Position numbers and translations under genes: made by a program. Below the pieces are notes generated by a model. It was not told the DNA's origin. It did not search any database and saw only the letters and a program-made list of their open reading frames with translations. A stretch of 61,796 bases of DNA, filler included, from Porpidia crustulata (lineage: Eukaryota), in the NCBI GenBank assembly GCA_964255105.1. It is 4 parts of 4 records of this genome, joined end to end, with 100 filler letters (N's around TTAATTAATTAA, not from the genome) between each part and the next. Parts side by side here need not be neighbours in the genome. Positions count along the whole stretch, not along the records: positions 15,483 to 30,858 come from CAXUWE010000314.1; 3 more parts are not named here. One strand, given 5' to 3'. Of the stretch, positions 14,761 through 21,711 are shown piece after piece; the stretch's first letter is position 1, and each line of letters begins with the position of its first letter.

Positions 14761-15382
14761 AGGGCGTAATGATGGGGCTTGGTGATGGGGATTATATTTC
14801 AAGAGGTGCAGGATGGAAGATGGGGCGGCATGGAATCTGGAGCAGGATATAGGGGGCATGGCACATGGTTGGATTTTCTTTTCTACGTGTGTCGGTTGTT
14901 GAGGCGCCGCGATGATTGACGAGCGACGATTCTGGCGTTCTTGGATTCTCAGGAGGACATCACCTGCGGTGCTTGGGCGCATCGATATTGGGAGTCCCTC
15001 CTGTCGGGGCACGGGATCAAGATTTGGATCTCCCTTTCTAATCATCCATCAGTGTTAATATCTAGGAACTCCGCCCTTGGGAGAGCGAGGCTATATAATT
15101 TGATCGGTTCAAAGCATGGGCTTGTATCCGGACTTAGGTTTCTCTGGACAGGAACAGGTGCACTAGAGACGCAGCAATATGTGCTCCTACAGGTATAATT
15201 GCAATTGATGTGTGTCGTGTTATGCTGGTTCATAAGCCTTCAAAGACACAGAGCTGGAAGTGAGATGAGATGGACCTCGGTGCTTGGATTGGGACTCCGC
15301 TAAATTAAGGCTCCTCCCGGCCCCGGGAGCCAAGATGTTCTCACTTGTATTGCGGGGACCTAGGCGCCACGGTGCCTAGCAC

Positions 15383-15482
15383 NNNNNNNNNNNNNNNNNN
15401 NNNNNNNNNNNNNNNNNNNNNNNNNNTTAATTAATTAANNNNNNNNNNNNNNNNNNNNNNNNNNNNNNNNNNNNNNNNNNNN
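15383..15482. other. Artificial contig-joining spacer (44N-TTAATTAATTAA-44N)
   Basis: 100-nt N spacer containing a six-frame stop linker; identical to the other two spacers. Confidence 0.99.
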
Positions 15483-15810: not shown

Positions 15811-17199
15811 TTACGACGCCTCCCCGAGCCATTTGTACACGACCGAAAAGTCCTTTGCTTTTGCCGTCGCTCCGACCTCTTCGTAAACCTCGGTCGTCTT
15901 CTCTGCAAGTGTTAGTTTCGCACCTGCCCCTAGCGCCGCTTCAACCGCAAGCCGCAGATCCTTCTTCATCAACTCAACCCCAAACCCGCCGTCGTAGTTC
16001 CTCTCGGCGGGCGCTCCGGGGGTGACGCCGGGGACCGGGTTGTTGACTTCCGATGCCCAGCAGCGTCCGGAACTGCCGTTGATGAGTTCGCCCAACTTCT
16101 TGGGGTCGAGCCCAAACTTGACACCCATGTTCATCGCTTCGGCTGCGGCAATGTTGCTGACGGCCAGGAGATAGTTGTTCGCCAGTTTCCCGCTCAATCC
16201 CATGCCTTGTTCGCCCAGGTGGACCGTTTTCTTGCCCATGAGAGCCAGGATCGGGCTTACGCGGTCGACCAGCTGTCCCGATCTCGAGGAGGCGCCAAGC
16301 ATGAACGTCAAGGTGGAATTTTGTGCACCAACGACACCACCGGACATGGGGGCATCGACGAAGCGGCCTTGGGCGGTGCAGTGGACGGCATTGGCAACTT
16401 CGCGGGAGGAGGCCGGGTCGATGGTGGAGCAGTCGATGAAGAGACGTTCATTGTTGGTGGTTGACGAAGGGGGTGGGGGAAGAGGTGGGTTAAGGATGTT
16501 GTGGAACACATTTTTGACGTGCGATGGTTCGGGGAGGACGGTTATGATAGTTTGCTAGCAGAGGAGACAGATTAGCTTGGTTGCTGGATTTGCATGGGTA
16601 GATGCAACACGGTGTTGAACATGAGCGATCGACGGATCAGAGGATTGGCTTTGATGTAGAAATTTTTGGAATCATGAAATAGGGCAAGCACGAATGCGAG
16701 CCCCCTAACTTAGATCATCGATAGAACATGCTCATCATATAGATTGCTCAGTATCAGTAGGAAGATCGAGAATTGACGTACAGATTTCTCGGCAACTTCT
16801 CGAGGTGACTTGGCAACCACGACCCCATCTCCCACCTCCTGCACGAATTTGTCGGTAGCTTCTGTGTTTCTGTCGTTTATGAGCAGTGTGTCCTTTTTTG
16901 GAATCTTCGCTCTAAGGTTCTTGGCCATTGGATATCCTACAATGACCTCAGATAAATCAGCACGTGCTCTAGAACCACCCGCTCGCTTTGAACCAGCAGC
17001 ATCGGCGTCACCGCAAGCAATGAAGTCATTGCAAAGACCTACCCATGCGTCCCAGACCGACAAAGCCCCAAGTCGCCAGATTACTCCCAGAGGAAGCAAA
17101 CGATCTCCTCGTGACCCTCGCAACCGCACCGGAAGCGGCGCCATTCCCAAAAATGCACAATTTCGCCGGAGAAAACCTGATGGAAACCATGGCCCGCAT
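15811..17199 (-). CDS. 3-hydroxyisobutyrate dehydrogenase, mitochondrial; exons 17199(or 17190)-17043, 16936-16782, 16554-15811
   Basis: Rossmann motif GFVGLGRMGYPMAKNL, IDCSTID, DAPMSGG, catalytic KLANN, GFGVELMKKDL; Arg/Ser-rich presequence; both introns in phase. Confidence 0.95.
16632..16743 (-). ncRNA. Candidate intronic box C/D snoRNA in intron 2 of the dehydrogenase gene
   Basis: Box C ATGATGA (16738-16732), box D CTGA (16640-16637), C'-like ATGATT, internal hairpin AGGG..GCA-TTCG-TGC..CCCT; element AGCCAATCCT next to box D is complementary to the conserved LSU rRNA sequence AGGAUUGGCU; host intron is 227 nt versus about 50-110 nt for the other introns. Confidence 0.75.
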
Positions 17200-19749: not shown

Positions 19750-21711
19750 TGTGAATAGTTTGCGACAAAGGTTTCGCGATTGAGGTGCTCAAAGTATGCT
19801 AAGCTCTATCGGTGCGATTTCGTAGAGCTGGAGCGCGCCGAAAATTACCGTCTATCAATTGATCCCGGTCGGGCGCCTTGGTGGATAAAAGCAACGGTTT
19901 TCACACCGAGTGAAGCTGAAAGTACAGTTGACTGTACGCGGTGACAAGGTGGAGCGCAGTGGAGATGATAGAAATGAGACAAAACTACCGTTGGTTCGCG
20001 TAGTCTGGGGTATGAAAACGGGGATGGAATTGTGAGGTGGCAGGGGAGAGGTTGGTAGTGTCATATCTCTAATCTGCCAGAAGGGGGCTGGCTGGACCTC
20101 CACATGCGGCAGACGACGATGATAACGTCACATTATCCACGACGTCCTTTTTACAAAACTATACGGATATATCATTGTGCACGCAATAGAAAGTAGATCT
20201 AGGGACTTATGTGATCAATACTGATCCGCGTCAACCCATCGCGAATAGGATTGACCTCCAAACAAAAGCAAGTACGCCTCTCATTAGACTAGGAACATAC
20301 ACAATAGAGCCCGTCTTCCAGCTAGCCAGTCACCCAATTTACTTTTGAACCTCCGCTTCCAAATCCTTCAACATGTCCAAATTCCAAGATTTCCGCATCA
20401 TAGTATTACAGTACATTGTATCCTGCTCCATACCCTACCTCCATCTGGTCAGTGATTGCTGTATCAAGGTATCACCTGTGAAGAGTTCTTTGTCTAAATT
20501 ATATTGCTGTAGCGCACAAGATCCTTTGGGTCCAATATGTTTGCACTAGAAGTCTACGGTAGTCTTGATTGTATTGAAGCGTTTAACCCTGAAGATTGCT
20601 CCGTGGCGGGCATATCTCTTCAAGTCTAATTGCTGCTTGATACATCGCTACTCAAAATTCCCATGGTGCCTCTGCATCGAGTTCAATTCTATCATCTCGT
20701 CTCTTCGCGCCTTGATCCTAAATCCTTTGGCACAGCGATATTCCACTATAATATATATTTATTCGATAATCGCCATACATAACCTCAATTTCGAAGAAAA
20801 GCAAAATCATCATCGGGAAATTGGCGCTTTGCACATCTGCCAAAACCCTTCCCACAAAGTGGTACAACTCATCTTGACACGGCCTCCAAGCCCCCACATA
20901 TAGTGGAAAAACTTGGTGGACACGACCAGCTCAAGCCTCTCCCATAGAGACTTGGATACTCAGTGCGGTCTTTCGCAGATTGTATGTTAAGACCTCGGTT
21001 GCATCAGAGAGTCCTAGTCTGCTGGTATCGCGCATGTACTGCCATTGGCCACACACAGGCTCATCATCAAATGAAATATAGTATGAAACGCGGAGTTTAC
21101 ATATAAGTCGAGGGTAGTACGCGTATTATACGAAATCATTCAAGTTGTAGAACCATGGTCTCAGGATTATCCTACCGTGTTTTCACAGCCACCCTCGACG
21201 CGCATTCCGCCATTCAAGCGACTTTTCAGTCGCACGAGAGGCTGTAGTGTGAAGCACAGTTGAAAAGGCGTAGGGCAAAGTTGTGACCAACAACAAGAAA
21301 CCCACTACAGCCAGTGAATCATCTACGGCTTACGTTGTCACATCAAGGGCCCCCATGCCTACCTGTCCATTCCTCGCAGTCTCATTTATAAAGAAATATC
21401 AGAACTGAACCGAGAAGACTAGCATATGTGCATGATACTCAAATGTATTTGACAGTGGCAGCAAAGCCGTATTTGAGATGCAGCAGGCTTACTGCCACAG
21501 AAAACGCTTTTAACACAGAAGAGTTACTGACAGATGCCACACACATGGTGAAACACCGAACAATATAACAATATACACCTTTCCAACGAGTAGCCGAAGA
21601 AGATGAATTAATCATCGCACCTCAGCGCAAATTCTGAGCTGTAGAAAAGAGCCCCGAAATCAGGAATTGTAGTGAGTTGCCATGGAAAAGCTGTAAGGTG
21701 AAGAACACCAC

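Follow-up and report, generated by a model that had tools for sequence, protein, structure and literature searches.

An intron on the minus strand of a 61,796-nucleotide (nt) stretch of Porpidia crustulata DNA (assembly GCA_964255105.1, four parts joined end to end; hereafter the window) very probably encodes a genuine box C/D small nucleolar RNA (snoRNA) of the family described as Nc CD40 in Neurospora crassa and as CD_40 across fungi. The more specific reading, which we consider likely, is that this RNA is the local orthologue of Nc CD40/CD_40, lies in sense orientation within a conserved intron of the 3-hydroxyisobutyrate dehydrogenase (HIBADH) gene, and has predicted guide and accessory roles on large subunit (LSU) ribosomal RNA (rRNA). 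The family was described in 2009 and 2018, so the gene is not new, and the novelty that the initial annotation of the window had suggested for this RNA does not stand; the gene may be called ordinary because its family has already been cloned in N. crassa. What may be new is the re-reading of its targets together with the fixed host intron, of which the target part may already stand in the supplements of Canzler 2018. The elements of the RNA are as follows (the 80 unique sequences and alignment A1 are defined below); coordinates were obtained by reading the minus strand of the window directly and by script.

16743-16635, minus strand: predicted mature box C/D snoRNA, ~105-110 nt, its ends placed after those of the N. 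crassa cDNA (4-5 nt upstream of box C and 2 nt downstream of box D)
16738-16732, minus strand: box C, ATGATGA, matching RUGAUGA, near the 5' end
16731-16719, minus strand: D' guide GCATGTTCTATCG, 13 nt, of which positions 1-10 upstream of D' pair with LSU UGAUAGAACA
16718-16715, minus strand: D' box, ATGA, in 80/80 unique sequences and outside the search pattern
16714-16705, minus strand: putative accessory element TCTAAGTTAG, family consensus TCTAAGTTGG, complementary to LSU (CC)AACUUAGA
16705-16681, minus strand: internal stem-loop between D' and C', tip GCA-TTCG-TGC
16675-16670, minus strand: C' box, ATGATT (NTGATT in 75/80 and likewise outside the search pattern; TGA invariant in alignment A1)
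16650-16641, minus strand: D guide AGCCAATCCT, pairing 10/10 Watson-Crick with LSU AGGAUUGGCU and identical in Nc CD40
16640-16637, minus strand: box D, CTGA, near the 3' end and 82 nt upstream of the 3' splice site

Nc CD40 (EU780963) is a 107-nt RNA from a chromosome IV intron of N. crassa, obtained from a cDNA library and seen on northern blots (Liu 2009, PMC2780460; this and the other papers cited below are represented by the portions of their text available to us). When the window is compared by eye with the sequence printed in Additional file 1 of that paper, the two RNAs have in common the intronic position, a length of ~105 nt, AUGAUGAG, UGUUC, the D' box AUGA, UCUAAGUU, a GC-rich internal hairpin, a C' box of the UGAUU type and an identical AAGCCAAUCCU-CUGA, and in alignment A1, N. 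crassa-like members from the metagenomes align with the window as well. The motifs lie where the initial annotation had placed them, and its proposal of an intronic box C/D snoRNA on the host sense strand is borne out both by this homology and by the orthologues presented below. The family is listed across fungi as Nc_CD_40 in snoStrip and as 'not detected in Eurotiomycetes', and no target for CD_40 is named in the main text available to us (Canzler 2018, PMC5824354). In our literature search, the name 'Nc CD40' turned up solely in Liu 2009. Rfam 15, which the initial annotation had proposed as a check, gave no match for the whole window at the gathering threshold, for the locus at E values up to 10, or for 20 orthologous loci, the RNA being known from the literature instead; since Rfam holds no model for the family, Rfam-based pipelines cannot find this snoRNA gene.

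Orthologues were collected by a metagenome scan with the pattern ATGATGA-N65-95-AGCCAATCCTCTGA (box C, then D guide plus box D), which returned at least 113 loci. The CTAA[AG]T block, absent from the search pattern, is present in 103 of the 113 listed loci; two of the remaining 10 (L182 and L229) adjoin HIBADH exons and look like divergent members, and eight are unrelated. The resulting set of at least 105 orthologues (103 + 2) was reduced to 79 unique cores, to which the window was added as the 80th, and aligned with MAFFT (alignment A1); all counts out of 80, 41 or 105 in this text hold among the matches listed. HIBADH-like exon 2, exon 3 or both are correctly placed in 103/105 loci, with 43-92% amino acid identity (L154 and L207 are without them). 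Among the listed loci, the orthologous intron has a median length of 208 nt (range 178-287, n = 52), the 5' splice site lies a median of 41 nt from box C (43 in the window), and box D lies a median of 72 nt from the 3' splice site (range 59-105, n = 70; 82 in the window). Such conserved spacing to the splice sites fits splicing-dependent release of an intronic snoRNA. Among the lineages reached by the scan are some with saturated spacers and a host protein only 43-60% identical to that of the window, which is not what a freely drifting guide would give. Both guide assignments of the initial annotation stand up to comparison with these orthologues and with real LSU sequence, as set out below. 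No paper linking a snoRNA to this HIBADH host gene was found in the literature, and the available portion of Liu 2009 holds nothing on the host gene of CD40.

The internal hairpin co-varies. A helix of at least 5 bp is present in 75/80 sequences, with a median z of -2.83 over 74 distinct sequences. In alignment A2, a gap-free subset of 16 members of equal length, 96.7% of the cells of an 8-bp helix are paired, versus 50-61% when the partner strand is slid; both sides have changed in 5/8 pairs, and the covariation score was reached by 0/500 shuffles.

The minus strand of the window encodes HIBADH, in agreement with the proposal of the initial annotation that the host is a valine-catabolism gene. 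The parts flanking the snoRNA are:

16934-16782, minus strand: host exon 2, YPMAKNL...REVAEKS; most listed orthologous loci have a similar exon upstream of the snoRNA
16781-16555, minus strand: host intron between exons 2 and 3, 227 nt, phase 0, GTACGT...GCTAAT...CTAG
16576-16571, minus strand: branch-site-like GCTAAT, assigned by consensus only
16554-15811, minus strand: host exon 3, starting QTIITVLPE, the C-terminal 247 amino acids of HIBADH

Exon 3 matches the Pfam domains NAD_binding_11 (3.1e-26) and NAD_binding_2, and its top NCBIfam match is TIGR01692 (HIBADH), at 230 bits versus a cut-off of 291.6, a shortfall that arises because the scan covered exon 3 alone. The GCTAAT motif is present as previously claimed, and its distance from box D is 60 nt rather than ~65 nt. 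A probable assembly gap, seen as a run of N (X in all six translations), stands at ~15380-15480 of the window, just past the downstream end of the HIBADH gene.

To examine the target of the D guide, eukaryotic LSU fragments contaminating bacterial assemblies were used as stand-ins. A scan with an 18-nt eukaryotic LSU motif gave 35 loci (L111-L145), of which 32 read as LSU, and the D-target motif occurs once per locus in 35/35, its presence being by construction as it was the search pattern. Seven fragments are fungus-like (L112, L113, L119, L120, L124, L135 and L143); these match the N. crassa 26S segments given in Additional file 4 of Liu 2009 (PMC2780460) and read ...UUGAUAGAACAAUGUAGAUAAGGG...CUUCGGGA(A/U)AAGGAUUGGCUCUAAGGGUUGGG, followed by a variable GC-rich segment and AACAACCAACUUAGAACUGG. 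In six of them, the sole 10/10 Watson-Crick site of the D guide is AGGATTGGCT, which confirms the complementarity that the initial annotation had proposed. By the D+5 rule, position 5 of the D guide faces the first U of GGAUUGG. According to the available portion of Liu 2009 (PMC2780460), Am1859 of N. crassa is the A of GAU[A]GAAC, Um1866 (the snR62 site) follows 7 nt further along, and the third G preceding AAAGGA is Gm1907; counted from these anchors, the target of the D guide is N. crassa U1915. In yeast, snR62 makes Um1888 (PMC5199042), and this anchor together with the equal spacing in a yeast-like fragment places the targets of the D and D' guides at ~U1937 and ~A1881. The complete methylation map of Saccharomyces cerevisiae has only Um1888 between Gm1450 and Cm2197 (Yang 2016, PMC5199042), so that, as far as the available portion of that paper goes, ~U1937 and ~A1881 are both unmethylated in yeast, which for the D+5 site fits the statement of the initial annotation. 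The available portion of a plant comparison table likewise holds nothing at matching distances from Um1892 (PMC11542601), and the D-guide motif is absent from supplementary guide lists for Arabidopsis and Drosophila, though their long entries are incomplete. A paper on Dbp3 gave no list of sites, and our literature search turned up no ribose-methylation map for filamentous fungi. We think it more likely than not that the D guide methylates the predicted U.

Three further observations concern these scans. Of the 35 motif loci in bacterial and archaeal assemblies, 32 are short eukaryotic rRNA contigs (fungus-, yeast- or mammal-like) that look like contamination. In viral contigs, the LSU motif occurs at two loci, neither of which is rRNA. 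A looser snoRNA pattern in viral contigs returned 108 copies of one unrelated phage/prophage gene, which were rejected as candidates; that gene carries GTGATGAG...GGAAGCCAATCCTCTGA at a fixed spacing of 102 nt in 108 viral contigs (L003 onward).

The second guide was claimed to pair with LSU rRNA about 50 nt upstream of the first site, and the D' guide sequence TGTTCTATCG does pair with TGATAGAACA, through 9 Watson-Crick pairs and one G·U in 6/6 fungus-like fragments, 55 nt upstream of the D target. Position 5 of the D' guide faces the A of GAU[A]GAACA, which corresponds to N. crassa A1859 and yeast ~A1881. The window belongs to a D' class of 41/80 unique sequences that end in T(T/C)CTAT(C/A/G)-N before ATGA, and 36/41 of them form 8-12 Watson-Crick pairs with the same LSU site in a fixed D'+5 register, only position 1 varying freely. 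A double guide in the lineage of the window is thereby supported as a prediction. In the other 39/80 the D' region differs: 11 resemble N. crassa (GTT[CT]C...), with the register lost, and 22 (such as L153, L159, L171 and L241) share TTTCC/TTTTCC at a variable distance from D' (6-9 nt in the best matches). The partner of TTTCC is ambiguous: it could be GGAAAAGGA, which overlaps the D target, or AGGAAAAGAA, close to the LSU 5' end; the irregular spacing of TTTTCC makes it unfit as a methylation guide. The D' guide of L154, L199 and L251 pairs over 12-13 nt with AAUUAAAACAUAG, a predicted third target for the snoRNA family that lies 185 nt downstream of the D target and is reached in the D'+5 register. 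The D' guide varies between lineages; around a fixed core, at least two predicted D' targets are in register, one being the A of GAUAGAACA, the other a U within AAUUAAAACAUAG.

It might be argued that the D guide works alone and that the D' match to UGAUAGAACA is a relic or a coincidence, the A being served by another snoRNA such as an orthologue of CD28. The match comprises only 9 Watson-Crick pairs and one G·U, and its duplex energy is equalled by 121/300 shuffled guides; the D' region differs in nearly half of the family, as counted above; and in N. crassa, according to the available text (PMC2780460), a 14-bp D guide of CD28 covers that A whereas Nc CD40 lacks the pairing. The recurrence of 8-12 Watson-Crick pairs at one site in 36/41 sequences, with fixed D' spacing and only position 1 free, speaks against a relic, and we regard this alternative as unlikely for the lineage of the window.

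The block directly following the D' box deserves a different reading from those given to it so far. The initial annotation had offered ATGA/CTAA as D'-like; the ATGA is indeed the D' box, whereas the CTAA belongs to another conserved element, which is complementary to rRNA. The consensus TCTAAGTTGG is present in 64/80 sequences and TCTAAGTT in 72/80, the element stands directly after D' in 66/80, and TCTAA plus the T two bases on is invariant in alignment A1. The sole 10/10 site of the consensus is CCAACTTAGA / CCAACUUAGA, found in the three fungus-like fragments that carry it and lying 144-148 nt downstream of the D target, and the consensus duplex is equalled by only 4/300 shuffles. Folding of the rRNA pairs UCUAAGGGUUGG with CCAACUUAGA; the strand UCUAAG-GG-UUGG begins one base past the D target and closes the variable segment. 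We take the expansion segment closed by this helix to be ES27L on H63. Since the block complements the 3' strand of the closing helix beside the D target, it looks like a site of accessory pairing, and we lean slightly towards such pairing as its way of action. The first published annotation of the family took the block for a guide served by an unusual D' box, a reading that we do not share. G·U pairs involving the two terminal G of the element occur at the foot of the snoRNA's own hairpin, so the conservation of these two G may be partly structural. The window itself has UCUAAGUUAG where the CD40 family has UCUAAGUUGG; its closest relatives (L146, L163 and L212) keep the accessory consensus.

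Several variants were observed at this element and its LSU counterpart. L182, which adjoins a HIBADH exon, has a TTGTTCTATCT guide and a canonical CTGA D' box without the TCTAAGTT element; the accessory block is therefore not universal. L120, a low-coverage contaminant contig, reads CCGACTTAGA / CCGACUUAGA at the accessory site, and L225, L230 and L242 carry TCTAAGTCGG, which would match the change in L120, the species concerned being impossible to link. Under the same restriction, UCUAAGUCGG and CCGACUUAGA are candidate matching variants of element and LSU.

Considering that the D guide is short, the RNA could also form a real ribonucleoprotein in which the D guide and the accessory element serve only as a base-pairing chaperone and place no methyl group, as with yeast snR190. 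Ten base pairs are the minimum for a guide, the invariant accessory element is complementary to the opposite strand of an rRNA helix, and our literature search turned up no methylation data for filamentous fungi. The predicted snR190 site Gm2395 is absent from the available portion of the yeast map (PMC5199042), so that conserved guides without methylation do exist. Yet the D duplex directly adjoins box D and fits the D+5 geometry exactly, the RNA has canonical boxes, and in yeast, short guides with extra pairing do methylate (PMC3116282, as far as available). A role confined to chaperoning therefore appears improbable to us, and methylation by the D guide with the help of accessory pairing is preferred.

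According to the original annotation of Nc CD40, UUCUAAGUUGG is a D' guide for 26S A2062 and is followed by a non-canonical D' box. The complementarity does exist over 11 nt (Liu 2009, PMC2780460, available portion), but the element is followed by a variable hairpin stem with no box-like motif, and the invariant ATGA lies just upstream of it. Moreover, three single-sequence targets of Liu rest on false D' boxes according to Canzler 2018 (PMC5824354), whose main text, in the portion available, names none of them. We consider this reading highly improbable.

A number of results weigh against our interpretation. On the single sequence, the pattern ATGATGA-N70-100-CTGA has 2 matches in the window versus 2.15 expected from shuffles, and since the boxes alone occur at the chance rate, the case must rest on homology and pairing geometry. 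On a 2.4-kb fungal LSU fragment, the duplex energy of the D guide is equalled by 34/300 shuffled guides, that of the D' guide by 121/300, and that of the window's accessory element by 167/300 shuffles, the G-to-A change in this element leaving 8 contiguous pairs; the fold of the whole RNA is no better than that of shuffles (z 0.26). The constancy of box C, D guide and box D in the at least 105 orthologues is no evidence because the search required them. RNAalifold gave no consensus pairs on the full 80-sequence MAFFT alignment, which we attribute to the variable length of the hairpin. No conserved terminal stem was seen in the lineage of the window, with no systematic count made. The window itself has only a 5-bp outer stem (TGAGC/GCTCA) 7 and 10 nt off the boxes, and several orthologues have terminal stems of 5-6 bp as judged by eye. 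The target comparison covered LSU fragments from other sources up to the last third of the molecule, and another target may lie in that 3' third, in 18S or 5.8S rRNA or in the small nuclear RNAs. Liu 2009 (PMC2780460), in the portion available, assigned no target to the D guide of Nc CD40.

The other ATGATGA...CTGA match of the window lies at 20960-21067 on the minus strand, with stops in all three sense frames. It was considered as a snoRNA and rejected: it has no run of at least 8 nt complementary to the two LSU fragments compared, and for this reason, together with the 2.15 matches expected, it was taken as a chance match.

That the motifs of the HIBADH intron are likewise chance occurrences in an ordinary intron with no stable RNA, as the chance rate of the boxes might suggest and as might the failure to find a listed RNA sequencing run containing the region (one DNA-like run, which may be the source of the assembly, was listed), can be set aside almost completely in view of at least 105 orthologues with conserved boxes and spacing, the covarying hairpin, and an N. 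crassa member that was cloned and is northern-positive (PMC2780460, available portion).

Combining these results with established knowledge of intronic snoRNAs, the following working may be proposed. The snoRNA would be freed by splicing of the host intron, debranching and exonuclease trimming, and trimming would stop at the part shielded by the core proteins bound to the C/D and C'/D' motifs. The 10-nt D guide would pair with LSU AGGAUUGGCU and bring the first U of GGAUUGG into the site of the methyltransferase; in the lineage of the window, the D' guide would in addition pair with UGAUAGAACA and aim at the A of GAU[A]GAACA. The accessory block would pair with (CC)AACUUAGA, which forms the 3' strand of the expansion segment's closing helix. 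Because the element copies the 5' strand of this helix, it would capture the 3' strand ~145 nt away, beside the D duplex, and this pairing could both steady the short D duplex and keep the closing helix open, similar to the extra base-pairing of yeast snoRNAs. It is conceivable, and we offer this only tentatively as an idea more doubtful than not, that CD40 is a clamp on the base of the expansion segment, whose core times helix formation besides methylating a U that is unmodified in yeast, while the D' guide has been repeatedly re-aimed and the gene kept in one intron.

With regard to annotation, the snoRNA accounts for the unusual length of the intron. For snoRNA biology, the gain is a modest one: the published reading of the family is corrected, in that its conserved D guide aims at a U unmodified in yeast and its former D' guide resembles an element for accessory pairing that spans an expansion segment. 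The relation to the host intron is deeply conserved, across HIBADH proteins that are 43-60% identical.

Several known systems resemble the snoRNA of the window in part. Nc CD40 itself differs in that its D' region, GUUUGUUCCAAUUC, is out of register with A1859 and in that 5 additional bases stand between D' and the accessory element, and its published target (Am2062 via an odd D' box) is unlike the present reading. Nc CD28 is similar in that its D guide is predicted to reach the same A, 26S-Am1859 in GAU[A]GAACAAUGUA, but it is a separate snoRNA with a 14-bp guide upstream of box D, and its other guide aims at Am1845 (PMC2780460, available portion). Yeast snR62/U34 (Um1888) and the U50-like Nc CD16 (Gm1907) guide on the same 60-nt LSU stretch as CD40, but belong to other families and have other target nucleotides. 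A parallel for the accessory block is provided by yeast, in which extra base-pairing beside short guides boosts methylation 2-5 fold (van Nues 2011, PMC3116282, available portion): snR75, snR76, snR70, snR13 and snR87 likewise combine short guides with a conserved non-guide rRNA complement near the methylation site (PMC3116282). Unlike these extra-pairing snoRNAs, CD40 has its predicted partner 144-148 nt off, across the expansion segment and adjacent to the D target only through the rRNA helix.

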